Shown one piece after another: positions 1-50,839 of a stretch of 50,839 nucleotides of DNA. Each line of letters opens with the position of its first letter. Position 1 is the stretch's first letter. The notes under the pieces are model-generated. The model did no database searches. It saw only the letters and a list, made by a program, of their open reading frames with translations, and was not told the DNA's origin. Made by a program: the position numbers and the translations under genes. This DNA comes from a virus: the IMG/VR virus record IMGVR_UViG_3300029858_000017, one strand, 5' to 3'.

Positions 1-99
1 ACGAGTACGACGAGTACGGGGAGCGAAGCCACCACCACCAGTTTTGCGAGGCGCTCAAGCTGCTGTTGTTATAGGTGCTGTTGCTGACGGCGTTCGCCG
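1..99. repeat. Terminal direct repeat copy 1 (identical to 50741..50839); circular-closure overlap
   Basis: Read directly: acgagtacgacgagtacggggagcgaagccaccaccacca...ttgctgacggcgttcgccg occurs at both window ends. It lies inside an ORF and partly inside VR1, so it is not a packaging terminus. Confidence 0.95.
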
Positions 100-2023: not shown

Positions 2024-2078
2024 CAAAGCTCACAAAGGCTGGCGATGCACGTACAATGAATACCCCAATGAAACGAGG

Positions 2079-3390: not shown

Positions 3391-3403
3391 TGTGCTTCCT
3401 CCT

Positions 3404-5643: not shown

Positions 5644-5654
5644 GGCTCTCCTCC

Positions 5655-7096: not shown

Positions 7097-7453
7097 CTAC
7101 GCCGTCCTCCTTTCATGGAGGTAGAGCTTTACCTGCTGACCGAAGTTCTCGAGCGTGACCTCGCTGATGCCTTCCTCGGTCAGGCATTGTGGGATGATGA
7201 CGGGTAGCGGGAATCGCTCGTCTTCGACGCTGCCAAACAGGGGCCTCCCGTATCTCACGATGTCGCCGTACACGAGGGGCTCGCCGTCGCTGCTTTCGAG
7301 GTCGGCGGTGAAGAACTTGCCGACTTCGTTGTACTTGATGGTAAACATATAGGTCTTGTCCGTCAGTTTCACGGAGAAGGTGTAGGGAACTTTGGCCGTG
7401 TCGATGTCGATGTACTCAACCTCCTGCCCGAGGTCTATAAGCTGTAACGCCAT
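7097..7453 (-). CDS. Hypothetical tail/baseplate protein
   Basis: 118-aa ORF abutting the XkdQ-like gene; no family recognised. Confidence 0.5.
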   Translation of the reverse strand: MALQLIDLGQEVEYIDIDTAKVPYTFSVKLTDKTYMFTIKYNEVGKFFTADLESSDGEPLVYGDIVRYGRPLFGSVEDERFPLPVIIPQCLTEEGISEVTLENFGQQVKLYLHERRTA

Positions 7454-8090
7454 GCCTATCCCTCCCTTGCTTTGCTACCGCGACGGCGCGGGCGGTGCCG
7501 TTGTAGCTCGGCGTCGCCCTGCTGGCGGGCCCGCTGCTGCTGGCGGGCTTGCTGTCGTAGCTGCTGACGTACTGCGCGTATGCGCTGCTGGAAATGGTGC
7601 TCGATACGGTGGTCTTGAGGCCGTCCGAGCTTGTCTTCTTGGTCTGTGTCGGGTTGCTGCTGCTTTTGCCGCTGTCCTGCTGCGTCATTGTCGGGTAGGC
7701 CCCAACCTCGACAACCTCGGCCGACGATATGTTGACCTGCTGAAAGGTTGCTTTGAAGGAGCAGCCTTTCGCGTTCTTGGCCGAGGCGTCGAAAGTGAGG
7801 CTTGTTATGACGAGGTTGCTGACGCGGTTCCTGCCGGTGTAGGATACAATGTCGCGGCGCTCCCTCATGTTCTGTAGCGTGCTCTGGGCCTGCTGGCCGC
7901 CGATGATGACGCCGGAAATTGTGAATTTCATCGGGTCTTTGATGACGTGGTCGTTGATGTCGCCGCCACTCTCAATGGGGTTGGAGGTGACTTTGCTCGA
8001 CATCGAGACTTGCTCCGTCTGGATATTGCCGACAGTCTCCGGCTCGAATCTGACCGTGCCGCACTTGCGGCCCGTGATGGTGTATGCCAT
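7416..8090 (-). CDS. Tail protein following tape measure (Dit-like N-terminal motif)
   Basis: ...SKVTSNPIESGGDINDHVIKDPMKFTISGVI... motif; Ser/Thr-rich C-terminus; synteny. Confidence 0.5.
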   Translation of the reverse strand: MAYTITGRKCGTVRFEPETVGNIQTEQVSMSSKVTSNPIESGGDINDHVIKDPMKFTISGVIIGGQQAQSTLQNMRERRDIVSYTGRNRVSNLVITSLTFDASAKNAKGCSFKATFQQVNISSAEVVEVGAYPTMTQQDSGKSSSNPTQTKKTSSDGLKTTVSSTISSSAYAQYVSSYDSKPASSSGPASRATPSYNGTARAVAVAKQGRDRHGVTAYRPRAGG

Positions 8091-8105
8091 AGCTCCGTCA
8101 CCTCC

Positions 8106-10592: not shown

Positions 10593-10613
10593 AATACCAC
10601 CTCCTTATACGAC

Positions 10614-10645
10614 GAAATAGCCGCCCCGGGTAGGGCGGCTATTTC
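10614..10645 (-). other. Perfect 13-bp stem / 6-nt loop hairpin spanning the stop codon of the chaperone extension, just upstream of the tape-measure RBS
   Basis: gaaatagccgccc cgggta gggcggctatttc read directly; no clean U-tract on the minus strand. Confidence 0.6.
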
Positions 10646-10926
10646 TTATTTGGGTTCCATTCGTCTTGCCACATGAGGCGGGCCTCGACGGCCTCGCGGT
10701 ATTCCGCGAAGTCCATGTTTTTGAGCTCTGCGTAGGTAAGGCCGTTTCCGGCGAATACCATACACCAGAACTCTCTATGCCGCCGGGCCCGGCGCTGCGC
10801 TGTGGCGATGCTTGCTTCACTCTCTAAGAAAGGTCTCGATGGCCTTGATGAGCGCCTCCGGGCCCTTGAGGTCTTCCTGCTCGTCAAAGTATGCCATGCC
10901 CTGATTCCGAACCTCTGCGGGGGCAA
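10639..10926 (-). CDS. +1-frame ORF overlapping the tail assembly chaperone 3' end (candidate frameshift extension, gpT-like)
   Basis: The distal 59 aa (ESEASIATAQ...NGLTYAELKNMDFAEYREAVEARLMWQDEWNPNKK) look protein-like. The proximal part is an R/S-rich overlap. Position between tube and tape measure. Confidence 0.5.
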   Translation of the reverse strand: MPPQRFGIRAWHTLTSRKTSRARRRSSRPSRPFLESEASIATAQRRARRHREFWCMVFAGNGLTYAELKNMDFAEYREAVEARLMWQDEWNPNKK

Positions 10927-11149
10927 TCACGCAGTTTTTGAACATCCTGTCCATGTACTCTGCGGATTTCTTCTTGCCGCTGCCGGTATTGCCGCACTCG
11001 TCATTGGTATCGTAGTACCACGTGGGGGAAACGCTTTGCAGCGTGTATTCCGTGCCGTTCACGGTGACTTTCTTCTGCTTCGCCATATGTTTTCTATATC
11101 CCCTTTCGGATAGTGATTTGGGCCTCTTGGGCCAGTTGTTTACGGGCAT
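10817..11149 (-). CDS. Tail assembly chaperone (gpG-like); alternative start ATG 11086
   Basis: 110-aa ORF between tube and tape measure; ...KKVTVNGTEYTLQSVSPTWYYD... Confidence 0.65.
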   Translation of the reverse strand: MPVNNWPKRPKSLSERGYRKHMAKQKKVTVNGTEYTLQSVSPTWYYDTNDECGNTGSGKKKSAEYMDRMFKNCVIAPAEVRNQGMAYFDEQEDLKGPEALIKAIETFLRE

Positions 11150-11162
11150 CTATATCCCCGCC

Positions 11163-11570
11163 TTAACGGTAGTTGAGGTCGGGGATGTAGACGTTCACGG
11201 TTACGGTGCTCGGGTCTTTGGTGCGAGGGGTGTCGGGCATCTTGAGGATGCGGCAATTCTCCTCATTGACCTGCATCGCGTCCGCGTCGTTGACGTCGGA
11301 AAGGGAGAAGCGGACGGCTTTTTTCTTGGCGCACAGCTCGCGGATGTAGGCGAGGCTGGCCGAGGTGCTCATCAGAGGGATGGCTGCGGTGCCGCTGTTG
11401 TTCGCGTTCTCCGAGTAGGTGACGTCGCCCTTCGCTCCGACGTTGGGCGTGACGGCGTCCTCGTTGTGGGTGAGGGTAATCACGCCGTCAGAGGCAAAGC
11501 CGGTGATGACACGGCCGCCGAGGCTGACGGTCACTTTCATGGGGTCGTAGGTGGTGACTTCTTTGGACAT
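11163..11570 (-). CDS. Tail tube protein (DUF3277-like)
   Basis: 135 aa directly after the sheath gene; MSKEVTTYDPMKVTVSLGGRVITGFASDGVITL... style. Confidence 0.7.
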   Translation of the reverse strand: MSKEVTTYDPMKVTVSLGGRVITGFASDGVITLTHNEDAVTPNVGAKGDVTYSENANNSGTAAIPLMSTSASLAYIRELCAKKKAVRFSLSDVNDADAMQVNEENCRILKMPDTPRTKDPSTVTVNVYIPDLNYR

Positions 11571-11592
11571 TGTCTGTTCCTCCTTTCATCGG

Positions 11593-12696
11593 TTACGCGC
11601 TGAGTGTGGCGCGGAGCGTGCCCTTGACCTTGACGCTGTGGACAGCCCCCTCGAGTTGCGCTTCCCACACGATGTCAGGCATCTTGCGGGCCCGGGCCTC
11701 GTCGTCGGTCGCATCGGCCCGCTTGGGGACGGTGACGGTAAAGACGCCTGCATCGCTCTCCGGGTCGGTGGCAATGATGCCGAGGTCGGTGGCGCGGTTG
11801 AGGGCCGCGAAGACGCCGGAGGCGATGAGGGCGAAGCCTGCATCCGTGTACGGAACCTTGGCGTTGTTGAGGAAGATGCTGTAAAGCTCCTCCCTCATGT
11901 ACTGCGCGATATAGTCCGCGCCCATCTGCACATCGATGAACTCGCCGTCGCAGCAGACGCCGTTCTTGACGTAGATTTTCTTGTACTCGTCCGTGAGGAA
12001 ATTGATGTTGGCCTCCTCGAGGGCGTCGCGCTGGGCGTTCGTGAAGTTCGGTAGAGAAATGCCCTGCGGCCGCTTGAACTTCCACGTTACGCTCTGTGGA
12101 TAGAAGGGGCCGACATTGCCGACGTAGGCCGCGTCCGCTTCCTCGTCCAGCTTTGCGCTGTCGGTGCAGATGAGGGCGCAGCGGCGGTTTGTGACGGCGA
12201 GGGATTTGTTGCTCGTCTGGCCGAAGTAGAATTTGCGGTGGTCTTCCTCTCCGGCTCCGAGCTCGGCCTCTGTGGGTTCCGTGCCCTCGGCCCATGCGCA
12301 AAGCGCCTTTACGGCGTCGTCGCCGTCTTGGTCGGTGAGCAGGATGTACCAGTCGTTGTCGGTCTCGCGGATGGTCTCTACGGCCTCCACAAGGGCCTTC
12401 GCCTTGGCTGCTGCATCGCTGCCGGTGGGCGCTGCGATGCCGCCTACCTTCACCTTGCGGATAAGGGTCTCGGCGAGGGTGGTTTTGCCCTGATTGAACA
12501 GGGCCGCAACCTTGCGGTAGGTCTTCTCTGTGTCGCCGCTGTTCGGGAAGTCTGCGGAGACTTCCTCGAGGCTGCGGTAGGTCTTGATGTCCTTCGCTCC
12601 TGCGGTGCTCAAGATTAGGATGTCGAGCGCCTCGGAGGCTTTGGGTTTCGCGTCGATATTAACGACTACGATAACGTCTTTCGCCATTGTGTTCAC
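11593..12696 (-). CDS. Tail sheath protein (DUF3383-like)
   Basis: 367 aa, upstream of tube; ...DNDWYILLTDQDGDD...GPFYPQSVTWKFKRPQGI... pattern. Confidence 0.7.
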   Translation of the reverse strand: MNTMAKDVIVVVNIDAKPKASEALDILILSTAGAKDIKTYRSLEEVSADFPNSGDTEKTYRKVAALFNQGKTTLAETLIRKVKVGGIAAPTGSDAAAKAKALVEAVETIRETDNDWYILLTDQDGDDAVKALCAWAEGTEPTEAELGAGEEDHRKFYFGQTSNKSLAVTNRRCALICTDSAKLDEEADAAYVGNVGPFYPQSVTWKFKRPQGISLPNFTNAQRDALEEANINFLTDEYKKIYVKNGVCCDGEFIDVQMGADYIAQYMREELYSIFLNNAKVPYTDAGFALIASGVFAALNRATDLGIIATDPESDAGVFTVTVPKRADATDDEARARKMPDIVWEAQLEGAVHSVKVKGTLRATLSA

Positions 12697-13241
12697 TCCT
12701 TTTTCGTTTCTTTGAGGACGGCTGTCTCGATGACAGAATCGAGGCGCTCGTCTGCCTTGGTGTAGCGGATTCTCACGTCGAAGCCGTAGCGGCGAGCCGC
12801 TTCATCGACGATGAGCGTGGTTCGGTTGCCGACGTTGGTGACCTCCGCGATGACGATGCCCTTGTCCGCGAGGTCGTGGTACGCTCCGTGCAGGAGGTGG
12901 CCGACGGCCTTTTCGACAATGCTCTGGGCCTCGTCTTCTCCGAAGATGTACGCGGTGTGTGCCTCGTCGGCCCATCTGTTTTCAGAACAGGCCGTGAATG
13001 AGAAGGTGGCCGACGGCTGCTCCCGCCTTTGGTCTTCAATGTAGATTTTGCCGTCCTTCCCGGTGGTCTGCTTCTGGTAGTGGCTCCCGAACTCCCCTGT
13101 TGGCGCGTATGGCGTCGTGATGCTGTAAATTAGGAATGGCACGTCGCGCTCCGGCGAGGCTTGGTCGCTCAAAATAACGTCGATGCCGAGGGCCCCGTGG
13201 AGGCTGTTTACAAGTTCGTTCCGTATTTCGGTGAAGGTCAT
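12693..13241 (-). CDS. Putative tail terminator / neck protein
   Basis: 182 aa; ...DVILSDQASPERDVPFLIYSITTPY... resembles phage neck/tail terminator families; synteny. Confidence 0.5.
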   Translation of the reverse strand: MTFTEIRNELVNSLHGALGIDVILSDQASPERDVPFLIYSITTPYAPTGEFGSHYQKQTTGKDGKIYIEDQRREQPSATFSFTACSENRWADEAHTAYIFGEDEAQSIVEKAVGHLLHGAYHDLADKGIVIAEVTNVGNRTTLIVDEAARRYGFDVRIRYTKADERLDSVIETAVLKETKKE

Positions 13242-13606
13242 TTCGATGCGCTCACTCCTTTCTGCTCGACGACGTAACGCTTCATTGGGTGGATGGGGCC
13301 GTGTGTGAGCTCCTGCTTCACAGTGTAGGTATTGCCGTCGTAGGTGTCGCGTATCTGCTGGCCGACGGTAAGGCTCGGGCCGTTGGTGTAGAGCTTGTGG
13401 CTGTTCTGTGTGTAAGTGCCTGCTGGCGCGTATTGTAGGTCTTCGTTGTTGACTGGCATGATGACGCCTTTGAAGGTCGTTTCATCCGGTTTCGCGCCGG
13501 GAATGAATTGACCTCCGTTGGCCTGCGAGAAGGTCTCGCTCGGGGTTATCGCCACGATGTCATGCAGGAGGCCCAGAGGAATGCTTGGTCTTGCGAACTG
13601 GAACAT
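13238..13606 (-). CDS. Putative head-tail adaptor/neck protein
   Basis: 122-aa ORF in the neck module, overlapping neighbours by 4 nt. Confidence 0.45.
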   Translation of the reverse strand: MFQFARPSIPLGLLHDIVAITPSETFSQANGGQFIPGAKPDETTFKGVIMPVNNEDLQYAPAGTYTQNSHKLYTNGPSLTVGQQIRDTYDGNTYTVKQELTHGPIHPMKRYVVEQKGVSASK

Positions 13607-13609
13607 TGG

Positions 13610-14230
13610 TTATCCCTCCTCGATTTCGTAGCTGATAGAATGGAGCAGGCGGCCGCTGTCGTAAAGCGGAGTAGGCGTCTTCGCCGTGTTCATGGTGATG
13701 TCGCTCTTTGGCGGGTCAATTCCGTCAAGGATGTACTGCTGCGTCATTGCCACGGCCCGCGCCCCGATTATCTCCGCCGCCTCTTTCGCCGTGCCGCCCT
13801 CGAGCATGATGTGGTCAACCGCTGCCCGGCAGGCGGCCTCGAGCTCGCTCTGGCCGGTGTCGTAGCTGGCCCGGATGAAACTGCGCTCCGGGATTGTAAC
13901 GGAGGGGCAGAGGAGGAACAAGAAATTGAGCTTTTCTTTCCCAGCGCTCGTGACGCCGAACAGGTTGCCGGTGTCCTTCGCCCTGATGAAGAACAGGCCG
14001 GGGAAGTCTCGCGGGCTCTTGCCCTCGCTCTTTTTGTCGAGCGGTATTGCAAGGTTCTTGACGTTCTTCGCCCGGATGGTCGCCCCGTACTCGTGGACGC
14101 CTGCGATGGTGAGAATGTCGCTGCCTGCGGTGCCTTGGATTCCTACGTGAATTGTGAGCTTCCCGAGTGCGGAAAGTTCTGTTTTGATGCGCTGCAACTC
14201 TGGGCGCACGGTGTCTTTGATTATCGCCAT
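13610..14230 (-). CDS. Putative tail completion / virion morphogenesis protein (HK97 gp10-like)
   Basis: 206 aa, neck module position. Confidence 0.45.
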   Translation of the reverse strand: MAIIKDTVRPELQRIKTELSALGKLTIHVGIQGTAGSDILTIAGVHEYGATIRAKNVKNLAIPLDKKSEGKSPRDFPGLFFIRAKDTGNLFGVTSAGKEKLNFLFLLCPSVTIPERSFIRASYDTGQSELEAACRAAVDHIMLEGGTAKEAAEIIGARAVAMTQQYILDGIDPPKSDITMNTAKTPTPLYDSGRLLHSISYEIEEG

Positions 14231-14241
14231 GGCCTGCCTCC

Positions 14242-14907
14242 TTATAACCGTGTGTATAGACCGATTGTAGCGAGCCAGCTCTGGCGCGGCTCTTTGTCAA
14301 ACGTCCACGACACGTCGGAAATGCTGAAAGCGGATAGGCCCTGCGCCCCGTTCTGCATGGTGGCAAACTCCTGCTGCACGATGCCCCAAACGACGTTTTG
14401 CAGGTCGTATGGGAGTGTGCAGGGGTCGTCCTCGGTGGCGTCCTTCGGAAGGACGTACCCGGCCGTGTATTTCACCTCGAGGTAGCGGGTTGGGTAGAGG
14501 AAATCGTAGGCGAGGCCGCCGGCGTAACCTCTGAATGCCCATCCGTTGTCTTTGTAGAGGACACCGATTTCGCCGTCCACGCTGTAGTCGTATTCGGACG
14601 GCGAAATGGTGCTCCCGTCAGCCGTGTCTTTGACGTACTCGACGTTTGTGATAGGCCATTGGAGCAAGACAAGCTCCTGCGTACCAGAGGCGACGTATTT
14701 TTGCGTGTAGACCTGCCTGCCGAGCTTGCGCCCGGTCTGGCGCTCTACCCATGCGGACGCTGCGTTGATGAGATTGACGAGTACGGTGTCTCTCTGCGCG
14801 TTTTCGTCCGTAGGGTCAATGCCGAGCATGGCCTTGACGGTTTCAAGGGTTGTGAGGGCGTTCGGCGCGAGTGCCGGTACTGTCGAATTGCCCATGCGCG
14901 TCGTCAC
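14242..14907 (-). CDS. Head-tail connector protein (gp6-like N-terminal domain)
   Basis: ...LTTLETVKAMLGIDPTDENAQRDTVLVNLINAASAWVERQTGRKL... is typical of gp6-like connectors. Confidence 0.65.
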   Translation of the reverse strand: MTTRMGNSTVPALAPNALTTLETVKAMLGIDPTDENAQRDTVLVNLINAASAWVERQTGRKLGRQVYTQKYVASGTQELVLLQWPITNVEYVKDTADGSTISPSEYDYSVDGEIGVLYKDNGWAFRGYAGGLAYDFLYPTRYLEVKYTAGYVLPKDATEDDPCTLPYDLQNVVWGIVQQEFATMQNGAQGLSAFSISDVSWTFDKEPRQSWLATIGLYTRL

Positions 14908-14933
14908 CTCCTTTTCATGGGAAATGAGGGCGG

Positions 14934-15086
14934 CTACTCGCCGCCCTCGCCCTTGCCTTTGCTCTTATTCTTGGTCGCTTTGCTCTCGCTGCCGGTTTCC
15001 TGCTTCGTTTCCTCCACAGGCCGCGCCATTTTATTCTCGGACGGCGCAGGGCTGCGATGCTCTGTGGCCTTGTAGATTCTCGGCAT
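14934..15086 (-). CDS. Hypothetical small Lys-rich protein (50 aa)
   Basis: Internal ATG 15086 of tracked ORF 14934..15179, preceded by GGAGGG and immediately after the upstream stop. Confidence 0.4.
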   Translation of the reverse strand: MPRIYKATEHRSPAPSENKMARPVEETKQETGSESKATKNKSKGKGEGGE

Positions 15087-15100
15087 GGTCGTTCCCTCCG

Positions 15101-15514
15101 TTACACGGGGTTCTCGTTCTTGTCGCCGAGGGCGATGGCTGCGGTCGCCGTGCAGGCCGCGCTGCTGCCGCCGGTGCAAACGACGCTGATGGTCGCCTTG
15201 ACGTAGCGCTTGCAGCCGACAAAATCGCAGTCGATGTTGACGAGCTCACCGCCCGCCTTATCGGTCTCGATGCTGACTGCTCCATCGTCGTCGAGGGCCT
15301 TGTCGAGGACGATGAGCTTGTCACCGCAGGCGGTGAAGGTGCCGTCAGAGGCGTCGCTGTGCGTGAAAACGGCCTTTACGGCCAGCGCGGTCGGGCTGCC
15401 GGTGGGGGTGCCGACCTTGACGCCGATGACGCCGGAAAGAAAGCCCTCGCGGTCAATGGCGTCGCCGCTGGTGTAGGGTGCTACCTTAACGGTCTTGAGA
15501 AGTGCTCTTTTCAT
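15101..15514 (-). CDS. Hypothetical head-associated protein (possible decoration protein)
   Basis: 137 aa directly downstream of the major capsid gene. Confidence 0.45.
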   Translation of the reverse strand: MKRALLKTVKVAPYTSGDAIDREGFLSGVIGVKVGTPTGSPTALAVKAVFTHSDASDGTFTACGDKLIVLDKALDDDGAVSIETDKAGGELVNIDCDFVGCKRYVKATISVVCTGGSSAACTATAAIALGDKNENPV

Positions 15515-15550
15515 TGGGTGTTCCTCCTTTTGGTTTCGTCGCCCATCGCC

Positions 15551-17080
15551 TTAAACGATGAGCGCATTCTTGACAACGATGAAGCTCTCCGCATGGCGGG
15601 CCGCGATGTCAACGTACATCAGGGCGCGGGTCGCGGCGAGGTTCTCCTCGAATGCGTTGTGCTGGTTGCCTTCCTCGTCCGTCCAAGAGCCGTCGAGGGT
15701 AGTGTAGGTCTCGAGGCCAAGCTGTTCGCCCACGAGAAGATCCGCCCAGTTGCCGAAGATGATGCTCGTCTTCTTGTTCTCGGTCGCAATCTGGTTGCTG
15801 ACCTTGTAGGGGAATCCGAGAAGCTTGCCCGCGTTCATCTCCTCGCGGTAGATGTAGTCGCCGGTGGTCGTCTTGATGTTCTTGAGGTAGCCCTCCATCA
15901 TGGAGTTGAACGTCCAGCCGAGTGCGAGGTCGTCCACGTTCTTGCTCATGACGGTGGAAACGAGCCACACAGGGAAATCGGCGGTCAGCTTGCCCTCTGC
16001 GGAGGCGAGGTTGGTGTCGTTGAGGCTGGCCGCGTTGACGGTCTGCACATCCTTGTTCGCGGTGATGCCGAGAGGCTGGAACTCGCCGCCAGTGCCGAAC
16101 ATCGCGCCGAAGTCGAGGCCCAGCTCCATGCGGCGGGTCAGGTCATTGGCGAAAAGTGCGTCGGCGCTGTAGTTTGTGCTCATGAGCAGTTCGCGGGTCT
16201 GTGGCACGATGGCCTCGAGGCGCTTCGCGGACAGTTTGATGTTGCCGTAGGTGGGCTGGGTCTTGCCAATCTTGCGAGCCTCGCCGCCCCACGTTGCGCG
16301 AGCCCCGGAGGTCATCTTGGGGATGTTGAGGTTGCCGTTCGCCATAGGCACCTTGCGAGCGCCCAGCTCGAAGATGACGGTCTTGGCGTACAGCATTTCG
16401 ATGATTTCGTCGAGGTAAATCTCGGGGATGAGGAAGCCGCCAGCGGTGGGGTTAGTGACGGACATGGCCTTGAACTCGCGGGCCATATCCTCGTCGCCGT
16501 AGTGCTTCTTCGCGTAGAAGGCTGCGGCCTCGGGGTCGTGACGGCCGAACACGTCAAGGCACTTGACGGCGCGGGCGAGCTGCACCTCGGGGGGCAGTTT
16601 CTTCTTCTCGGTTTGCTGCCGGGCTGCGGCGCGGGCCATGTAGATGTCGGAATACTTGCGCTGCGCGGGGGCTGCGGCGCGGGTCTTGGTCTGGCGCTTC
16701 TTGGTGGCCTTGGCCGCCTTGGCCTCGGCCTCCTCGTCGTCCTCCTTCTCCTCGGTCTCCTCGTCATCGGCCTTGGTCTCGTCGTCGCCGGTTTCCATGG
16801 CGTCAAGGATGGCGGCCGCCTCGGCGAGTACCTCGTCTGCGGTCAGGTCTTCGCTGACTTCCTCGCCAGCTTCCTTGCGGGCCTTGCGCTTCTCGGTGGC
16901 TGCCTCAACGGCGGCCTCGATGACCTCCATGATGCCCTCGTTGAGGGTGGGGTCGTCCTGCTCGGTCAGGTCTTTCTCCTCGTCGCCGAGGCACTCCTTG
17001 ACGGCCTGCTTGACCATTTCCTTGAGGTCGTCTGCGCTCATCTTCATAGACTTCGCGCCGGGGATGCTCTTTTTGTTCAT
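15551..17080 (-). CDS. Major capsid protein, HK97 fold, with ~200-aa acidic N-terminal (delta/scaffold-like) region
   Basis: 509 aa. The C-terminal 300 aa (...GGFLIPEIYLDEIIEMLYAKTVI...TWGGEARKIGKTQPTYGNIKLSAKRLEAIVP...) are HK97-MCP-like. Confidence 0.9.
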   Translation of the reverse strand: MNKKSIPGAKSMKMSADDLKEMVKQAVKECLGDEEKDLTEQDDPTLNEGIMEVIEAAVEAATEKRKARKEAGEEVSEDLTADEVLAEAAAILDAMETGDDETKADDEETEEKEDDEEAEAKAAKATKKRQTKTRAAAPAQRKYSDIYMARAAARQQTEKKKLPPEVQLARAVKCLDVFGRHDPEAAAFYAKKHYGDEDMAREFKAMSVTNPTAGGFLIPEIYLDEIIEMLYAKTVIFELGARKVPMANGNLNIPKMTSGARATWGGEARKIGKTQPTYGNIKLSAKRLEAIVPQTRELLMSTNYSADALFANDLTRRMELGLDFGAMFGTGGEFQPLGITANKDVQTVNAASLNDTNLASAEGKLTADFPVWLVSTVMSKNVDDLALGWTFNSMMEGYLKNIKTTTGDYIYREEMNAGKLLGFPYKVSNQIATENKKTSIIFGNWADLLVGEQLGLETYTTLDGSWTDEEGNQHNAFEENLAATRALMYVDIAARHAESFIVVKNALIV

Positions 17081-17096
17081 GTTGTTGTCCTCCTTA

Positions 17097-18089
17097 TCAG
17101 AACGTGATTTCGATGGTGGGTGTCTGCGATTTCTGTGCCCGCGACGCTGCGGGTTTGGTCTGCGGTTTCCGGCTGGCCGCCTTTTCTCCTTCGACCTCGG
17201 TAATGAGGGCGTCGAGGGTCTTGGCCGCCTTTTTCATGGTCTCGCTCGCGTCTTTGAGCGTCTTGAGGCGGGCGCTGCTGATTTTGCGGCCCTCCTTTAC
17301 GTCGCTCGCGGCGTCGGAAACGATTTTCGCTGCTCGGTCGGCCGCCTCGGCTGCCTTGTAGCCGGTGATGGTGGCCTCGGGATTCATGGCCCATGTGACA
17401 ATGGAAACTTCCCAGAGCTTCACCTCGCGGAGGTGCCGGATGCCGCTCTCGTCGTAATCGAATACGACGGGGTCGTAGCCGATGGAAAGTTCGTTGAGCA
17501 CGCCGTCTTTCAGCAGAACCTTCACGTCGCGTCCCATGCTGGTGTCGCTTACCTTGGCCTTGATGAACAGGCCTTTGGCGTCCTCTCGGAGTTCAATGGG
17601 GCGGCCAATGGGGAGCCAGCAGTCATTGTGGAGCGCCAGAATCTTTACGCGCTCCCATCCTTCGGCGATTGTCTTCGTGAAGGCTCCGGGCTCTATGATG
17701 TCGCCGCCGTCGTCGATATTTCCAACGACGGCCCCATACCCGGAGAAGATGCCTTGCTCCTCGTCGTAGTCGTCCACGTTGAACAGCAGGGTCTTGTACT
17801 CTGTTTTGATGCCCTGCTTCTTTGCCCCTCGGGTGAGGGACTTCTCCCACGCCTCTCTGCCGGTCTTGGGAGAGTAATAATTCGGCGATACACGCAGGTT
17901 TGCCAGCGCGAGCTTCGCCGCTATTACCGGGTCGTCTGCGACGACGTTGGTCGCCGCGTCCTTCGTGCCGTGTCTGGCCGATTCTGCGGCCATTCCTGCG
18001 GCCAAAGTTTCCGGGGCTATCTTTTCCTTATCGAGGTCGATGCCGCCGTTTCTGGCCGCCTCTGCGGCTTGCTGTGGGGTGAAATCCAT
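17097..18089 (-). CDS. Prohead protease (HK97 family, S78/U35) with C-terminal coiled-coil
   Basis: ...FSGYGAVVGNIDDGGDIIEPGAF...LHNDCWLPIGRP...ELSIGY...LWEVSIVTWAMNPEA... Start moved to ATG 18089 with AGGAGG 8 nt upstream. Confidence 0.85.
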   Translation of the reverse strand: MDFTPQQAAEAARNGGIDLDKEKIAPETLAAGMAAESARHGTKDAATNVVADDPVIAAKLALANLRVSPNYYSPKTGREAWEKSLTRGAKKQGIKTEYKTLLFNVDDYDEEQGIFSGYGAVVGNIDDGGDIIEPGAFTKTIAEGWERVKILALHNDCWLPIGRPIELREDAKGLFIKAKVSDTSMGRDVKVLLKDGVLNELSIGYDPVVFDYDESGIRHLREVKLWEVSIVTWAMNPEATITGYKAAEAADRAAKIVSDAASDVKEGRKISSARLKTLKDASETMKKAAKTLDALITEVEGEKAASRKPQTKPAASRAQKSQTPTIEITF

Positions 18090-18100
18090 TTCTCTACCTC

Positions 18101-20251
18101 CTAAAAGTTCGGCGTCATCACGCATCGGCACTGAATGACCTCCTCTGCGGGCCCGTCCGGGTCTCGGGGGAAGCGTAAGCCGTTGCTGAATTTGCCGTCG
18201 ATGGGTACTGTCTCGCCGTTCATGCGCTTGTGGTCGCGCCGGTAGTCTGGCGTGGTGCTCATGTGGTGCCACGTCTTTGTCTGGGCTCCGGCCTTTACTA
18301 CCATGTCGTACTGGCCGGTGGAGAGGCTCGTCATGGTCTCCTGCTGCGCGATGAGGTGAGCGCGGGTCTCCGTGGTCTGCATTTCCTGCATGATGCTATC
18401 GGCGATGAGCTGCGTGCTGTCGCCGTTCTCGATGCCGTTGGAAACGATGCGGGCAATGTTGTCCTTCGTGGCCTGCTGGATGTTGACGACGCGCCTGCCG
18501 CCTCGCAGCTTGGCCGTGCTGATGAGCTCGGGCCGCTGCACTCCGCGCAGGCCGTAAAGATTCTGCGCGGCCTGCGCTCCGGCGTTGTATGTCTTTTTCC
18601 ACAACGGCTCGAAAATCTTGTTTAGAACATCCGTCTCGCTCGGCCAGTCGATGAGGCTGCCTACGAACTCGTCAAGGAGGCTTTTTTGCTGTGCCTCTGA
18701 AAGGGCCGCCCATGCTGCCGTGTCTACCTGCCCGGTCTCGGTGATGTAGTCCTTGAGGTAATCAAAGGCCGTGCGCCCGGCTTTCTGCGTGGTTCCGAGG
18801 GCCTCGCCGATGCGGCGGGCCTGCTCCCGGAAATACTTGCTTGTTGCAATCTCAAAGGCCGTTATGCCCTCTCTGGCGGCTGCGTCCTCGCTGCGGGCGA
18901 CAGCTCGTAGGCTGACGCTCTTGCGCTGCTTCCCGCCGAGGCCGCCGATGGTGATGGTGTCGCCGTGTTCCTCCTCGGCTGGTTCTTCGACTTCGATTTC
19001 CTCTGCCGGGGCCTCCTCGCCGTATTGCAGGTTCGCCATGCTGCTCGAAACGGCTACGGGGTCTTCGTCCGCTCTAACAAAGATGTCGGAGAAAGTCGTC
19101 TTGTAGACGTCGCCGCCTGTCCGGGCCGCTGGCATATCCAAAAGCTCGCGGGCCTCGTCTTTGGTGATGAGCCCTGCGTTCCATCCGTCAATGGCTTTCA
19201 TCTTGTCGAACTCTTGGTTTCGCGGCACGATGTCGTCGTAGCGCCAGATGAGGTGGTCGCCGAAAAGCGGGAGAAGCTGCTGGTTTATGGCGTCCTCGCG
19301 TCTGCGTAGGCGCGGCATGAGGACGTTCTGCGCGTAGATGTACTGCGCGGCCTCGGATGTGGCCCGGTTGCTGCTCTCGGTGATGCCCATGATTTCACGT
19401 GGTACGCCGAAATGCTCGAGGCAGGCGTCGCGGATGAAGGTGCGGCCGTTTACCATGTCCATGTCCTTCATGCTCTCCGCGACTTTCTGGATGGTGATTT
19501 CTCCGTCCGTGGTCGCTATGCCGTGGCTCTTGAATACGCCTTTGAAGCGTTCGAGCCACTCGGCGCGGAATCGCTTGCGCTGCTCGTCGCTGCTTCCGGG
19601 CATACTAACGATGAGGTTCGGCGTCGCGTCGTTGTAAAAGAAACGTTTCTGAAACTGCGCTGCGTACTCGTCGATTTCAACCTCATCGGCGATGGCCTCC
19701 GCTTGACCGAGGCCGCGAAGGAACGGGTCGAGGGGGTTGAGCTCCTTCATGACGAACATATCATCGACGCTCACCTCGAGGATGGTGCCGGATGTCGTCT
19801 TGACGGAGTAGTACGGGTGGTCGAGGTAAGGCGTCATCAGTACCCAATGGGTAGGTACGGGCCAAAGCTCGGCCGGGCGGCCTGCTGCGTCGCGTTCTAT
19901 GACGAAATAGCCCTCGCCCTTTAGAAGGATGTAGGTCTCCTCAAGCTGCCAAAGGCTTGCGCGGGTAAATTCGTGCAGAGGGTTCGGGTTCTCCCAGAAC
20001 TCGAGGAACGAGTGCCGGGTAACTTCTCTTTCGTTGCCGTTGCTGTCGATGGTGAGGAGCTTGCCGGAAGCAAAAGAGAGGTCGGATGCGATGCGCGTTA
20101 CCACGGCGAGGCGCGGGTTCTTCGCGTACATCTTCATCCAGTCTTGGGTGTTCCGCTCCGGCGGGCGCGTCCAGCGCGGTATCATGCGGTTGTTCCCTGC
20201 GTTGTGGAACTCCTCGCTTGGGGCCTGCCTGCGCCGGTTATAAATCGCCAC
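18101..20251 (-). CDS. Portal protein fused to a MuF/SPP1 gp7-like head morphogenesis domain
   Basis: 716 aa. The N-terminal ~430 aa are HK97-type portal-like. The C-terminus ends ...DHKRMNGETVPIDGKFSNGLRFPRDPDGPAEEVIQCRCVMTPNF (MuF signature). GTG start. Confidence 0.85.
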   Translation of the reverse strand: MAIYNRRRQAPSEEFHNAGNNRMIPRWTRPPERNTQDWMKMYAKNPRLAVVTRIASDLSFASGKLLTIDSNGNEREVTRHSFLEFWENPNPLHEFTRASLWQLEETYILLKGEGYFVIERDAAGRPAELWPVPTHWVLMTPYLDHPYYSVKTTSGTILEVSVDDMFVMKELNPLDPFLRGLGQAEAIADEVEIDEYAAQFQKRFFYNDATPNLIVSMPGSSDEQRKRFRAEWLERFKGVFKSHGIATTDGEITIQKVAESMKDMDMVNGRTFIRDACLEHFGVPREIMGITESSNRATSEAAQYIYAQNVLMPRLRRREDAINQQLLPLFGDHLIWRYDDIVPRNQEFDKMKAIDGWNAGLITKDEARELLDMPAARTGGDVYKTTFSDIFVRADEDPVAVSSSMANLQYGEEAPAEEIEVEEPAEEEHGDTITIGGLGGKQRKSVSLRAVARSEDAAAREGITAFEIATSKYFREQARRIGEALGTTQKAGRTAFDYLKDYITETGQVDTAAWAALSEAQQKSLLDEFVGSLIDWPSETDVLNKIFEPLWKKTYNAGAQAAQNLYGLRGVQRPELISTAKLRGGRRVVNIQQATKDNIARIVSNGIENGDSTQLIADSIMQEMQTTETRAHLIAQQETMTSLSTGQYDMVVKAGAQTKTWHHMSTTPDYRRDHKRMNGETVPIDGKFSNGLRFPRDPDGPAEEVIQCRCVMTPNF

Positions 20252-29585: not shown

Positions 29586-30449
29586 TTACTCGTCGTCATC
29601 TTCTACAATGGCTGCGAGGTGTTCGAGCTTGCGCTGTTCTGCTTCGCTGTTGTCTCCGAAGATGACGTCGAGTTGGTTGAGCATGATGCTGACGTCGGCG
29701 CGTTCCTCTTCGACGGATGCGATGATGGCGTCGTAGTCGCCCTGATTGAAGTCCTCGTGACGGACGTACTTGAGCAGGGATTTTGTGAGCTCGCTCATTT
29801 CCTCCACGGCCATGAGGATTTGTGCCCTTTCTCCGAACTTGACGACGGCCGCCTCGTAGAGGGCCATTTCCCGCTGCTCCGGCGTTTGTTCGTCCTCGCC
29901 GCTGTCATCGACAGATACCGAGATTTCAGATTTCAGATACAAAGCCGGGCGCACGCCGTAGTGGCCGTAGTACGCGTTGTTGCCGTTGCTGCTCCCGTCC
30001 GAGCTCACGTAGCGCACGAGGGAATTGTAGTCGTCAAGTCCACTGTATGGGGTGGCTGTCCACCACCATTTTCCGATGGGCGGGAGGATGTCACGGTGCC
30101 TGCGGTAGTCCTCCATCGTTAGCAGGCCTACCTTGACGCTGTCCTTCCCGTACTTTGGGAGGCCGTCGTCCGCTGTGAGGTCGATGACGTACTCGCAGAT
30201 GTTCCCGGCTCCGAGCTCGTCTTCCAGCTTGCGCAGGAACTCGCCGTTGAGGTAGGCGCGAAGGGTGGAAGCTGCGAAATCGCACTTGTTTCCTTCGTCG
30301 AATGCCCTGTTTTCGGTGATGTCGGTGGAAACGACGAAGGTGCGGAGGGGGAGCCCTTGGCTGCTCCTGCTGTGGTCGAGCACCGTCCACTGGATGCCTG
30401 CGCCGTAAAAGGTTTCGCCGCGCTTGAGGTCTTTGAGCTGTTTTTTCAT
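29586..30449 (-). CDS. DGR target protein 2: DUF6273-like variable domain fused to a C-terminal MazG-like (all-alpha NTP pyrophosphohydrolase-like) domain
   Basis: 287 aa. The N-terminal part is paralogous to target 1 (GIQWTVLD...STLRAYLNGEF...VGLLTMEDY...WWWTATPYS...GVRPALYL). It contains VR2. The C-terminus has ...FGERAQILMAVEEMSELTKSLLKYVR...VEEERADVSIMLNQLDVIFG... Confidence 0.85.
   Translation of the reverse strand: MKKQLKDLKRGETFYGAGIQWTVLDHSRSSQGLPLRTFVVSTDITENRAFDEGNKCDFAASTLRAYLNGEFLRKLEDELGAGNICEYVIDLTADDGLPKYGKDSVKVGLLTMEDYRRHRDILPPIGKWWWTATPYSGLDDYNSLVRYVSSDGSSNGNNAYYGHYGVRPALYLKSEISVSVDDSGEDEQTPEQREMALYEAAVVKFGERAQILMAVEEMSELTKSLLKYVRHEDFNQGDYDAIIASVEEERADVSIMLNQLDVIFGDNSEAEQRKLEHLAAIVEDDDE
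29943..30023 (-). repeat. DGR variable repeat 2 (VR2), 81 nt aligned to TR 1917..1997
   Basis: 12 mismatches to TR, all at TR coding-strand adenines. Homology stops abruptly 5' (coding sense) of 30023. Confidence 0.85.
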
Positions 30450-43206: not shown

Positions 43207-43593
43207 ATGACGATTTGCGAACGTGTCTTTTCTCTGCTGGCCGATGCTGGCCGCGAGCAGCGCGAGCTGGCAAAATTCATCGGCGTTCCGGCGAAAACCG
43301 TTAGCACGTGGAAGGTGCGCGGGACGAATCCGGGCGCAGAATACATCGCTGCGATTGCCGAGTTTTTTTCTGTCTCAGTGGACTACATCTTGACAGGGGA
43401 AGAAAAGGAATACCGGCTGTCTCCGGCCGACGAGGAGGTGCTTTCTGCGTACCACTCGCTGCCGCGCCCGGAGCAGGTTTATATCTTGAGCGAAATGTAC
43501 CGCCGTGCTGGCCGCATCTCCTCTCCCGCCGAAGTAATCGGGGAAGATAAAAAGACGGCCGGGCCCGAATCCGCTGTCGGGTCGGCCGTGTGA
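43207..43593 (+). CDS. CI-like repressor (XRE-family HTH)
   Basis: MTICERVFSLLADAGREQRELAKFIGVPAKTVSTWKVRGTNPGAEYIAAIAEFFSVSVDYILTG; AAGGAGG upstream; divergent from the early operon. Confidence 0.8.
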   Translation: MTICERVFSLLADAGREQRELAKFIGVPAKTVSTWKVRGTNPGAEYIAAIAEFFSVSVDYILTGEEKEYRLSPADEEVLSAYHSLPRPEQVYILSEMYRRAGRISSPAEVIGEDKKTAGPESAVGSAV

Positions 43594-43627
43594 TATACGT
43601 TGACTTTTCTCCCGGGGGTGAAAAGAA

Positions 43628-43912
43628 ATGAAGACTGGCTATCTGTCGTGCCGCCTCTGCGGCGCGGAAACGAACTGCGTGGAGCTGACGGTGGGCCTCT
43701 GCCCGGCCTGCGAAAAAATAAAGGCCGACGAGCTGGCCGCTCTGCATCGCTGCTTTGACAGGAAACTCGCCGAAGGTGACGCCGGGGCCGCTGCGTTGGC
43801 CGTTGAGGAAATTGAAAACTATGAGCGCCTATATGGCGTCCGGCTCGCTGCTGCGCCGTCTGTGGCCGCTATGCGGGCTGCCGTTGGAAGGAGGGAGGGC
43901 CGTGGGGCTTAA
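43628..43912 (+). CDS. Hypothetical zinc-ribbon protein (CRLCG...CPAC)
   Basis: 94-aa ORF on the lysogeny strand. Confidence 0.5.
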   Translation: MKTGYLSCRLCGAETNCVELTVGLCPACEKIKADELAALHRCFDRKLAEGDAGAAALAVEEIENYERLYGVRLAAAPSVAAMRAAVGRREGRGA

Positions 43913-44528
43913 CGAAATGATTAGGAGAGGTGCGGGTTCCGCTCTGGCCGAAATCGAAAAGCTGGACGAGTTTATCGAGCGGAATCCTCGTGCCTCACTT
44001 CGCAAGTTCAAGAAATGGGCAATGGAAGAGAGGCTTTCGCTGCCTCTCTTTGAGAAGGTTTTGGCGCTCTCGTTTGTCGGCGAGCGCGGCGTGTTCGCCG
44101 CGTGGAAAGCGCAATGTGAGGCCGTTCTCGGTGTTAACGGTGCGGAAATGCGAGCTAAAGAGCTGATGCTGGTTCCCTTGGCTGCTGGTTCTGACGAGCT
44201 TCTCTCAAAGGCTCTCCGGGGTGAAATCGTTCGCCCCGGGCCAGAAATTGGGATGCCTCTGAAAGAAATGCGTGAGAAGTACGAAGTCACTCATGTTCGT
44301 TGGATTGCAAAGAGTGGCGCTTGCGCGGGCTGCGCGGCTCTGGATGGTCGTATGTTCACGCTCGGGGAGGCCGAGGCTTTTGTCGAGAATAAGAAACACG
44401 AGGGCTGCCGCTGCCGTTGGGAGCCTGTGTACGGGTTTAAGGCTCCGCTGAAATATCCTCCAAAAGATGTGCCTTGCACACTATTCTCGACATTCTGTGA
44501 GGCCGCCGAGCTTTTCCCGGAGGCGTAA
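43902..44528 (+). CDS. Hypothetical lysogeny-module protein with MuF-like C-terminal Cys motif
   Basis: GTG 43902 (GGAGGGAGGG just upstream) or ATG 43917. ...WIAKSGACAGCAALDGRMFTLGEAEAFVENKKHEGCRCRWEPV... Confidence 0.5.
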   Translation: MGLNEMIRRGAGSALAEIEKLDEFIERNPRASLRKFKKWAMEERLSLPLFEKVLALSFVGERGVFAAWKAQCEAVLGVNGAEMRAKELMLVPLAAGSDELLSKALRGEIVRPGPEIGMPLKEMREKYEVTHVRWIAKSGACAGCAALDGRMFTLGEAEAFVENKKHEGCRCRWEPVYGFKAPLKYPPKDVPCTLFSTFCEAAELFPEA

Positions 44529-44532
44529 GTGT

Positions 44533-45624
44533 ATGCCGGTCTATAAAGACGAGAAACGAGGGACTTGGTACGCCTCGTTCTACTACACGGATTGGTCTGG
44601 AAAACGGAAGCTGAAAAAGAAGCGGGGGTTTGAACGTCGGAAGGATGCGCAGGAGTTTGAGCGCGAATTTCTGGCGAAGTCGGAACAATCCTGTGATATG
44701 ACGTTCGCCTCTCTTGTCGAGCTATACAACGATGATATGGCCTCGCGGCTCCGGCTCTCGACGCGGAAAAGCAAGGAATACCTGATGGAGCGTCATATCC
44801 TTCCCTTTTTCCGCGACTTGCCCGTAAACAAAATAACTCCCGCCCATGTCCGTAAATGGCAGGCGGGATTGCTGGCCGGTGGCTATAAGCCGACATATGT
44901 GAAGAATATAAACAATCAGCTTGTAGCCGTTCTGAACTATGCCGTTCGCTACTATCACCTTGGTTCTAATCCCTGTCACGTGGCCGGGAGCGTCGGCAGT
45001 AAAAAGGCTGGCGCAATGAAGTTCTGGACGGTCGAGCAGTTCAATACCTTCTTGGCCTGCGTAAAGAGGCCCTCGGCCCGTGCCGGTTTCTCCATCCTGT
45101 TCTGGACGGGAATCCGTATCGGCGAGCTTCTCGCGCTTACGCTGGATGATATAGACCTCGAGCGCCGGACGCTGCGGGTGTCGAAGTCTTACCAGAACAT
45201 AGACGGGGAGGATGTAATAACGCCTCCGAAGACGCCGAAGGGAAACAGGGTCGTTCCGCTGCCAGAGGCGATGTGCGACGTCGTCCGGGTGTATGTAGAG
45301 GCTCTTTATGACTACGAGCCGGATGAGCGCCTTTTCCCGTTCACGAAGTCCTATTTCCACAAGGAGATGGCGAAAGCGTGCGCGGCCTCCGGCGTTCCGA
45401 AAATTCGGCTGCACGACTTGAGACACTCTCACGCCTCGCTGCTGATTGAAATGGGTGTGCCTGTCCTGCTTATCTCCGAGCGCCTCGGTCACGAGGATGT
45501 GGAGACGACGCTGCGGACGTATGGGCACCTCTATCCGGCTCGGAACGATGACACGATGCAGCGGCTTAACGCTCTAATGGTGCCTACACCTCCGGCCGGG
45601 GAAGACGACCCGGGCGATGCTTAA
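44533..45624 (+). CDS. int: Tyrosine integrase
   Basis: MPVYKDEKRGTWYASFYYTDWSGKRK... (SAM-like N-terminus); ...FWTGIRIGELLAL..., ...HDLRHSHASLLIEMG..., ...LGHEDVETTLRTYGHLY (R..HxxR..Y). Confidence 0.9.
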   Translation: MPVYKDEKRGTWYASFYYTDWSGKRKLKKKRGFERRKDAQEFEREFLAKSEQSCDMTFASLVELYNDDMASRLRLSTRKSKEYLMERHILPFFRDLPVNKITPAHVRKWQAGLLAGGYKPTYVKNINNQLVAVLNYAVRYYHLGSNPCHVAGSVGSKKAGAMKFWTVEQFNTFLACVKRPSARAGFSILFWTGIRIGELLALTLDDIDLERRTLRVSKSYQNIDGEDVITPPKTPKGNRVVPLPEAMCDVVRVYVEALYDYEPDERLFPFTKSYFHKEMAKACAASGVPKIRLHDLRHSHASLLIEMGVPVLLISERLGHEDVETTLRTYGHLYPARNDDTMQRLNALMVPTPPAGEDDPGDA

Positions 45625-49709: not shown

Positions 49710-50839
49710 TTACACGTAAGAACCGGACGGCGGCTGGCACCAGATTTCGTCGTAGCCGGTGGTCTTCGTGATTTTGACCTTGACGCCTACGGCCCACTTC
49801 GCGGCCGTCTTGCTGGCGTTCGTGAACAGGTGCTTGAGGCCGGGGGTTGCGGTCTCCCACGTCGGGGATGCGTCCATTGCGTTGTTGCTGACGGAAAGGA
49901 CTACGGCGCTGTCGGCTGCGTAGTAGCGGAGCGAGACGAGGATTTTCTGTGCCTTTGCGTCGGTCTCGATGGGGCCGACGATGAACTCGATGCCGCTGAC
50001 GCTGCGCGTGAATGTGGTGGTGCGGGTCGCGCTGTTCCCGGCGCTGTCGGTGACTGTGACCTTCATCGTGTGCTGGCCGTCCGCGAGGCCTGCGAACTGC
50101 GCGGCCGTGAGGGCGAATGTGTAGGTCTGATTTCTGACGGCGTCCTCGATGGTGTCAACCTCTACGTCGTCGAGGCTCTTTACTACGGTGAGCTCGTCGG
50201 TGGTGTCCGCGTCGTTGACCGTGAAGGAAACGGAGGGCGGGCTCGTGACGGTGCCGAGGTTGGTGTCGCTGCCGGAAACGGTCGGGTCTACATTATGGAC
50301 GACAGTTCTGCTCGGGCCCGTGAGGTAGCTGCTGTATGCGCCTAGGTTGTCCTTCGCCCGGACACGCCATTGTACCGTGTTCGCGCTGCTGCCTACGCCG
50401 GTGTCCGTGTACGTGAGTGCGCTGCCCGCGTAAATCTGCGTGAACGAGCCGCTATTGATTTTGCGCTCGAGCTCGTAGCTGACTGCGCCTCCTTCGGGGT
50501 CGGTGCTGCCTGCCCACGTGATGACAGCGCCTTTCCCGCTGCGGATGGTCTCGGGTACCGTGATGCTGGGCGGGGTCGTCGGGGCTTGGTTCCAGACGAT
50601 GGTGTAGGCCCCGTCGCTGTCTGCGCTGTCAGATACCAAGATTCCAGAGGACAGATTCAAAGCCGGGCGCACGCCGACGTAGCCGTAGTACGCGCCGCTG
50701 TAGCTGCTGCTCCCGTCCGCGTGCACGACGCGCACGTAGGACGAGTACGACGAGTACGGGGAGCGAAGCCACCACCACCAGTTTTGCGAGGCGCTCAAGC
50801 TGCTGTTGTTATAGGTGCTGTTGCTGACGGCGTTCGCCG
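49710..50839 (-). CDS. DGR target protein 1, 3' portion (VR1, then FN3/Ig-like domains and C-terminal domain)
   Basis: The tracked ORF 49710..50798 'M' is an internal TTG. The frame stays open to the window end and joins 1..673. Downstream of VR1: ...PSITVPETIRSGKGAVITWAGSTDPEGGAVSYELERKINSGSFTQIYAG...VQWRVRAKDNLGAYS (FN3-like). Confidence 0.85.
   Translation of the reverse strand, partial: ANAVSNSTYNNSSLSASQNWWWWLRSPYSSYSSYVRVVHADGSSSYSGAYYGYVGVRPALNLSSGILVSDSADSDGAYTIVWNQAPTTPPSITVPETIRSGKGAVITWAGSTDPEGGAVSYELERKINSGSFTQIYAGSALTYTDTGVGSSANTVQWRVRAKDNLGAYSSYLTGPSRTVVHNVDPTVSGSDTNLGTVTSPPSVSFTVNDADTTDELTVVKSLDDVEVDTIEDAVRNQTYTFALTAAQFAGLADGQHTMKVTVTDSAGNSATRTTTFTRSVSGIEFIVGPIETDAKAQKILVSLRYYAADSAVVLSVSNNAMDASPTWETATPGLKHLFTNASKTAAKWAVGVKVKITKTTGYDEIWCQPPSGSYV
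50661..50767 (-). repeat. DGR variable repeat 1 (VR1), 107 nt
   Basis: Gapless alignment to TR 1917..2023 with 18 mismatches, all at TR coding-strand adenines. Encodes LRSPYSSYSSYVRVVHADGSSSYSGAYYGYVGVRPA versus TR-encoded VRSPNSSNSNNVRNVNTDGSSNNNNAYNGNNGVRPA. Confidence 0.92.
50741..50839. repeat. Terminal direct repeat copy 2 (identical to 1..99)
   Basis: See copy 1. Confidence 0.95.

Follow-up and report, generated by a model that had tools for sequence, protein, structure and literature searches.

Diversity-generating retroelements (DGRs) are best understood from their prototype, the mtd-avd-TR-brt cassette of BPP-1, in which sequence is transferred from a template repeat (TR) to a variable repeat (VR) in an adenine-specific manner with an Avd protein and a reverse transcriptase (RT); a functional non-coding RNA lies downstream of its TR, and its VR has a 3′ end rich in GC (PMC6182149, PMC3240598). 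All of these features have a counterpart in the element described here. Among gut phages, tentaclins have been defined on the myoviruses nd4 and nd12 (GenBank OR777945 and OR777946), in which a small second target also carries DUF6273 and has a shorter VR, and an nd4-like prophage has been reported in Flavonifractor plautii (PMC10743442). DUF6273 DGR targets are also found in the Faecalibacterium (pro)phages Lelie, CP11, Roos, Pioen, FP_Toutatis and FP_Brigit (PMC11792537). We have analysed the virus record IMGVR_UViG_3300029858_000017 over its whole length of 50,839 nucleotides (the window), with a focus on a repeat, VR1, close to its right end. VR1 is very probably the variable repeat of a functional DGR that serves two targets in a temperate human-gut phage with a contractile tail. 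Such a tentaclin-type two-target DGR of a gut Bacillota phage is of a kind already described in 2023–2024, and the phage is related to nd4, nd12 and the Faecalibacterium phages.

The likeness to nd4 and nd12 extends to the second, small DUF6273 target with its shorter VR, and target 2 of the window is 41–48% identical to their tgt2. Nevertheless, the window phage is distinct from both, and the likeness is found at the protein level only. With the Faecalibacterium phages it shares a temperate life in gut Bacillota and the position of the VR at the C-terminal end of DUF6273, and Lelie and CP11 likewise possess one large and one small target. In contrast, the identity of their proteins to target 2 is approx. 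31%, and the nearest RT relatives of the window phage occur in other Oscillospiraceae. There are also differences from BPP-1. Here, the genes are arranged as avd-TR-RT-target, the target coming after the RT; the VR lies within the open reading frame (ORF), DUF6273 takes the place of Mtd, and two targets are served.

The repeat is present in three copies. The 16-mer at its start occurs at positions 1917, 29943 and 50661 of the window, with 0 copies expected by chance, and a window scan with the degenerate 76-nt repeat pattern recovered these three copies without adding another (Table 1). VR1 aligns with the TR over 107 nt without a gap. In a scripted recount, 18 mismatches were obtained, all of them at a plus-strand T of the TR, which is an adenine of the coding strand, and none at a non-adenine position, exactly as an earlier note on this DNA had stated. 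Its figures of 76 identical non-T positions and 18 differing positions among the 31 T were also reproduced by the software. On the plus strand the changes are T>A (9), T>C (7) and T>G (2), corresponding to A>T (9), A>G (7) and A>C (2) on the coding strand, and the hypergeometric probability that 18 of 18 VR1 mismatches fall on the 31 T among 107 positions is 1.8e-12. VR2 matches the TR over 81 nt with 13 mismatches. Restriction of the mismatches to template adenines, as demanded of a DGR, was found both in VR1 (18/18) and in VR2 (13/13). The homology of the TR with VR1 and with VR2 ends at one common base, after the GC-rich GGCGTGCGCCCGGCT.

Table 1. Positions of the DGR components in the window (position 1 is the first letter of the stretch).
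Feature	Positions	Strand	Remarks
TR	1917-2023	minus	107 nt; 31 coding-strand adenines: 13 AAC, 1 ACG, plus GAC, AGC, AGC and TAC
VR1	50661-50767	minus	encodes aa 216-251 of target 1
VR2	29943-30023	minus	corresponds to the 3′ part of the TR over 81 nt; encodes aa 140-166 of target 2
Conserved DNA motif directly 3′ of VR1	50629-50660	minus	TTGAATCTGTCCTCTGGAATCTTGGTATCTGA; candidate target-recognition element
Conserved DNA motif directly 3′ of VR2	29911-29942	minus	TTGTATCTGAAATCTGAAATCTCGGTATCTGT
Non-coding spacer, putative structured RNA	1806-1916	minus	111 nt; five helices: CTGGTGGA...AAGTAG-hairpin-GAAAGCAGAGG..CCACC-ATCAAAGGA-hairpins-AAACACA
avd (accessory variability determinant)	2079-2480	minus	133 aa; phrog_3206 'Avd protein of DGR' (5.7e-30)
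DGR reverse transcriptase	666-1805	minus	RVT_1 (2.5e-16); translation contains IGNQSSQ and YMDD
Target gene 1, 5′ part	1-673	minus	ATG at 673-671; bases 1-99 duplicate 50741-50839
Target gene 1, 3′ part	49710-50839	minus	end of DUF6273 with VR1, Ig-like domains, C-terminal anchor-like domain; stop at 49710
Target gene 2	29586-30449	minus	287 aa; DUF6273-type domain with VR2 (1.6e-13, C-terminal part of DUF6273), then C-terminal all-helical domain, possibly MazG-like

At the protein level, the effect on VR1 is exhaustive. An in-frame comparison agreed with the earlier claim that every one of the 14 mutable codons (13 AAC and one ACG) has been altered, and the 14 changed residues are located at positions 220, 223, 225, 226, 229, 231, 232, 237–240, 243, 245 and 246 of target 1. 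According to the arithmetic of the genetic code, variants of 13 AAC and one ACG that are free of stop codons amount to approx. 15^13 × 4 = 8e15 proteins.

Further alleles were sought in IMG/VR and in a metagenome collection by means of the 76-nt repeat pattern with N at each TR-adenine site. The search yielded 7 and 32 stretches, respectively, all from the human gut where a source was named. Alleles were sorted by their flanks, and the chimeric contigs L089, L094, L090 and L117 were left out of the counts of distinct alleles, with L094 still being part of the VR1 set behind the substitution spectrum. The result was 19 distinct VR1 alleles, namely 18 of 107 nt including that of the window and a 110-nt allele in contig L114, and 13 distinct VR2 alleles, again with the window included. 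Each substitution in these VR1 and VR2 alleles is located at a TR-adenine site, and this holds for the 31 nt of VR1 outside the pattern as well. Nine contigs were retrieved via their TR copy and provide an unbiased view of VR1. Eight of them have adenine-site changes only, and L114 contains one additional in-frame codon in the AAC run.

The TR and the DNA around the repeats are stable. Among 15 TR copies, 13 are identical and two have TAC as the first codon instead of AAC. Relative to the window, divergence is 0.40% in the flanks vs 15.2% in VR1, and 0.28% in the flanks vs 17.9% in VR2. The contigs L099 and L113 agree at every position of 1200 nt of flank, yet their 107-nt VR1 copies differ at 19. 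As the mean pairwise flank divergence of 0.05 was inflated by indel-shifted flanks, it was not used, and only pairs with zero differences were considered. In the IMG/VR contig L001, which encodes an RT 100% identical to that of the window, 15 of the 45 differences over 9137 aligned nt are concentrated inside VR1, and the TR is identical. With 18 further VR1 and 12 further VR2 alleles next to a stable TR and stable flanks, the assertion that the element is, or recently was, active by adenine-specific mutagenic retrohoming is borne out across samples. The data support recent and repeated mutagenic retrohoming in the phages of human-gut samples, which is hard to fit with a long-dead element. Activity of the DGRs in Faecalibacterium phages was likewise inferred from adenine-specific variation among cognate genomes (PMC11792537).

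The alleles also correct one point of the earlier note, in which the adenines of the GAC, AGC, AGC and TAC codons were regarded as structural positions. These four adenines are indeed unaltered in VR1 and VR2 of the window, but they are not exempt from mutagenesis. Six alleles have TGC or TTC in place of TAC, one of the six stemming from the chimeric L117 and the other five being real; GGC replaces GAC in three alleles and AGC in one. As they are mutated elsewhere, their constancy in the window reflects purifying selection rather than protection. Two side observations concern the repeats themselves. The TR variant with TAC as its first codon comes from contigs L084 and L085 (IMG/VR 3300029432_000087 and 3300029360_000503), and a T is present at the same site in 14 of 18 VR1 alleles. 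Moreover, VRs are polymorphic in length: the extra codon of L114 (approx. 11231–11340) has its equivalent in homologues of target 2, which vary by 1–4 residues at the same place (alignment columns approx. 155–165). The pattern suggests that the AAC repeats slip while the cDNA is synthesised or the DNA is replicated.

It is improbable that the element is a fossil, i.e. that VR1 and VR2 were diversified in the past and the 18 differences are now frozen in a window genome with an inactive DGR. Nearly every sample possesses its own VR1/VR2 allele despite a flank divergence of 0.3–0.4%, and the flank-identical pair differs at 19 positions of VR1; even so, the source sample itself is a single consensus sequence, as a fossil would allow, and the Faecalibacterium phages Lelie, Lagaffe_CP and CP11 were without read-level signal when sequenced (PMC11792537). 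The machinery argues in the same direction as the alleles. The genes for RT and Avd, the TR and the spacer are all intact, and L001, with its different VR1, encodes an indistinguishable RT.

There is even less reason to believe that VR1 of the window is an assembly product, in which several alleles present side by side were merged into a mosaic or consensus, or the three repeat copies were wrongly joined to one another, and we consider this very improbable. The window begins and ends with the same 99 nt (1–99 = 50741–50839), the contig being circular in the assembly with 50,740 bp, and this terminal overlap is situated inside VR1. However, the sequence on either side of VR1 is genuine target 1 sequence, and the ORF continues unbroken through the junction. 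Four low-coverage contigs do connect flanks of different copies: in L089 and L094 the 5′ flank of the TR is joined to the 3′ flank of VR2, and in L090 and L117 the 5′ part of VR2 is joined to the 3′ flank of VR1. Probably, these contigs are chimeras that arose in the assembly over the 76 nt common to the copies. As their coverage is 0.9–2.7x, recombination between the direct repeats is the less likely alternative. The DGR signature would hold in any case, since even a mosaic VR1 would be made of adenine-site variants only. Finally, three duplicated coding segments evolving by normal mutation and selection without reverse transcription might be expected to retain some likeness by descent because DUF6273 is common to both targets, but such ordinary paralogous repeats are effectively refuted by mismatches that occur solely on adenines of one non-coding copy (P = 1.8e-12) sited between avd and RT, and by the low DNA identity of the target genes upstream of the VRs.

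Several observations weigh against a functional DGR of the proposed type or restrict its scope. The source sample is represented by one consensus contig, and diversification is therefore demonstrated at the cross-sample level. The search pattern fixed the non-adenine positions of 76 nt, so that any alleles with other changes at these positions would have been missed unless another copy on the contig matched. The Avd protein remains below the curated cut-offs of Pfam bAvd (4.8e-7) and NCBIfam DivGenRetAVD (2.6e-11), though both matches are significant. In contrast to BPP-1, no hairpin was detected after the VRs: folding of the DNA downstream of VR1, VR2 and TR gave no hairpin or cruciform better than shuffled sequences (z +1.4 and −0.6 for the VRs), and a cruciform is thus not claimed. 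For the diversified domain, a C-type lectin fold was not confirmed by Foldseek beyond the DUF6273 domain of an immunoglobulin A (IgA) protease, with weak matches to EgtB/FGE and CD94. In our view, these points leave the reading of VR1 as the variable repeat of a functional DGR very well supported.

According to the BPP-1 paradigm (PMC6182149, PMC5703328, PMC3240598), a complex of RT and Avd would bind the TR-spacer RNA, and the RNA would be reverse-transcribed with random misincorporation opposite template adenines. The resulting cDNA would replace VR1 (107 nt) or VR2 (81 nt or less). Its entry may be steered by the shared GC-rich 3′ end and, presumably, by the motif that follows each VR but not the TR.

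The proposed RNA partner of this process displays the signs of a conserved structure. In an alignment of the spacer from 41 related loci with RT identities of 45–100%, RNAalifold predicted 17 pairs, 11 of which show compensatory changes. The proportion of paired alignment cells was 93.5% vs at most 48% when the partners were slid as a control, and the covariation score was 0.43 vs 0.21 for shuffled alignments. The non-coding RNA downstream of the TR that is expected of a DGR was thus found, with five helices and with all controls passed. It has no matching Rfam family, and the whole window was without a match at the Rfam gathering thresholds. By analogy with the system studied in PMC6182149, we infer that the spacer RNA is functional.

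Each VR is directly followed by a motif of approx. 30 nt. The motifs after VR1 (TTGAATCTGTCCTCTGGAATCTTGGTATCTG) and VR2 (TTGTATCTGAAATCTGAAATCTCGGTATCTG) are alike, and no such sequence is present after the TR. They consist of a repeated (A/T)ATCT and end with the 13-mer TCTTGGTATCTGA. This 13-mer is exactly preserved in 68 of 101 related loci (among L004–L151) and conserved at synonymous sites: it keeps the rare codons TTG and TCT, which make up 5–6% of the respective synonymous families in this genome, as well as GTA, a minority codon (20%). In more distant loci, the amino acids of the motif are kept but not the codons. From this pattern we infer a target-recognition element that acts at the DNA level and might play a role like that of the region proximal to the initiation of mutagenic homing (IMH) site of BPP-1. 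Where BPP-1 has its IMH site and a hairpin or cruciform at the 3′ end of the VR, both VRs of the window and those of related loci show a shared GC-rich end and the 30-nt motif, and a hairpin is not predicted. The non-hairpin motif, together with the covarying spacer RNA absent from Rfam, could sharpen the picture of target and template recognition in a large clade of DGRs from Bacillota phages.

All genes around the repeat are encoded on the minus strand, in the 5′ to 3′ order avd, TR, spacer RNA, RT and target 1, and the TR occupies non-coding DNA between avd and RT. The RT genes of DGRs are defined by the motifs [I/L]GxxxSQ and YxDD. The RT of the window has an RT domain with both motifs (IGNQSSQ and YMDD) and adjoins the TR, as expected of a DGR-type enzyme, and it scored far under all cut-offs of the models for group II, retron, Drt and Abi enzymes. 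Its start is uncertain, with either the ATG at 1805 or an internal GTG in use, and its stop codon (668–666) and the ATG of target 1 (673–671) are only 2 nt apart. Presence of an Avd, another component expected of a DGR, was established by the match to phrog_3206. The arrangement is not unique to this phage. Among 160 loci encoding related RTs, A-biased TR/VR pairs were detected at 122, and the order TR-RT-VR was found again at approx. 100.

Target 1 is a protein of 567 amino acids whose gene is located at the end of the tail module. DUF6273 was recognized at aa 41–255 (4.8e-39) and an Ig-like Big_13 domain at aa 382–469, and the C-terminal approx. 300 residues (aa 252–560) correspond to phrog_10993, 'Hoc-like head decoration' (6e-104). 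The last 110 amino acids are 33–40% identical to the tentaclins of nd4, nd12 and FP_Mushu over 96–99% of the length (E 2e-12 to 3e-14). Judged from these sequence matches, target 1 is a tentaclin, with an N-terminal DUF6273 containing the VR, Ig-like domains and a C-terminal anchor-like domain, and all testable features of this protein class were found. It is presumably an adhesin that binds a ligand or receptor. Both VRs are internal to their genes, occupying aa 216–251 of 567 in target 1 and aa 140–166 of 287 in target 2, in each case where the DUF6273 domain ends on its C-terminal side, a position also seen in published tentaclins.

An AlphaFold2 (AF2) model of residues 1–275 of target 1 reached a predicted local distance difference test (pLDDT) score of 93.2, and its strands 226–230 and 236–240 constitute a β-hairpin. 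The model places most of the variable residues on and around this hairpin and in the adjoining loops. The model is matched by numerous structure predictions for gut-phage proteins with DUF6273. Among solved structures, Foldseek retrieved only the N-terminal DUF6273 domain of the IgA protease from Thomasclavelia ramosa (PDB 9qa6; E 6e-15, TM 0.68), and the profile of target 2 also aligns to 9qa6 around the VR. In the bacterium, unlike in the phage, this domain belongs to a surface enzyme, is not diversified and resides outside any DGR, and no role is assigned to it in PMC12402451. As the diversified phage domain and the IgA-protease domain share the modelled fold, a common class of ligands is conceivable. 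The natural allele series in public metagenomes (19 VR1 and 13 VR2) could be mined for the residues that are tolerated in the binding surface of DUF6273.

The second target is encoded at a distance of 20.7 kb from VR1 (VR1 to VR2) in a different genomic context, the replication or early module, between genes for a SleB-like hydrolase and DUF5131 and near those for an SbcC-like ATPase and RecU. Residues 1–207 match phrog_9958 (8.8e-58), and homologues of the same length number in the hundreds. The C-terminal approx. 95 residues (29586–29900) match phrog_2245, 'nucleoside triphosphate pyrophosphohydrolase' (E values of 2e-18 and 1.8e-17), at profile positions 120–206 of 218 only. The MazG-like metal-binding motifs EExxE and ExxxD were looked for, and their counterparts EEMSE and EERAD were near-invariant in 24 homologues of target 2, with five residues invariant and E249 kept in at least 90%. 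The domain is found in about 2000 representatives at 50% identity, for the most part stand-alone proteins of approx. 100 aa. A profile built from 50 homologues of the domain gave weak matches to the MazG-like structures 5ie9 (E 0.07), 2q73 (0.19) and 4qgp (0.43). Searches with the domain in Pfam and NCBIfam and by single-sequence phmmer against PDB were without a match, as was Pfam on ten stand-alone homologues, and the AF2 model of target 2 reached a pLDDT of only 38.5. A MazG-like nature of the domain is plausible but unproven.

No paper linking a DGR target to MazG was found in a literature search, and a MazG-like domain is not described for nd4 and nd12 in PMC10743442. In a tblastn search of target 2 against phage records, no match extended past residue 234 of 287, so that the last approx. 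50 residues of the MazG-like domain are without a counterpart in those records. It appears rather unlikely, though worth stating, that target 2 is an intracellular, non-structural protein instead of a receptor-binding protein of the virion, with a diversified DUF6273 binding domain fused to a MazG-like pyrophosphohydrolase. If true, target 2 would combine an enzyme with a targeting module open to diversification, acting for example in anti-defence or in the hydrolysis of a nucleotide signal, and the MazG-like tail provides a testable lead in this direction. With regard to the enzyme reading, we note that the gene is kept in hundreds of related gut phages. A 377-aa protein (P0035) is 71% identical to the N-terminal domain of target 1 and ends with the MazG-like helical domain of target 2 instead of Ig-like domains, indicating that the two target architectures exchange modules.

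The window encodes a tail sheath, baseplate wedge, portal, major capsid protein, amidase endolysin, tyrosine integrase and a CI-type repressor, and hence belongs to a temperate phage with a contractile tail. Repeat-bearing metagenome contigs that exceed the phage length (168 kb and 70 kb; L087/L107 and L112/L114) fit, together with the integrase, a prophage state, and the phage is probably integrated as such. The closest genomic relatives of the RT, with 84% identity, come from metagenome-assembled genomes of human-gut Clostridia and Oscillospiraceae, followed by relatives in Pseudoflavonifractor and Flavonifractor (76%) and in Oscillibacter and Dysosmobacter (66%). These RT relatives point to Oscillospiraceae (Flavonifractor, Pseudoflavonifractor, Oscillibacter) as the putative host family, in agreement with the nd4-like prophage of Flavonifractor plautii. 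Megablast of window positions 1–20000 against GenBank phages returned no match, nor did a scan of GTDB genomes with the exact repeat pattern.

For annotation, the value of these results is that a 50.7-kb contig can be marked as a temperate gut phage with a most likely working hypermutation system aimed at two proteins. Because the ends of the window are duplicated over 99 nt, positions 50741–50767 of VR1, i.e. its 5′ 27 nt, are the same DNA as positions 1–27, and the DGR target would be cut in two if the contig were annotated in its linear form, as the overlap is located within target gene 1. The overlap itself resembles a circularisation overlap of k-mer size. The genes for the CI-type repressor and the tyrosine integrase are situated at 43207–45624 on the plus strand, opposite to the DGR, in a patch of lower GC content.

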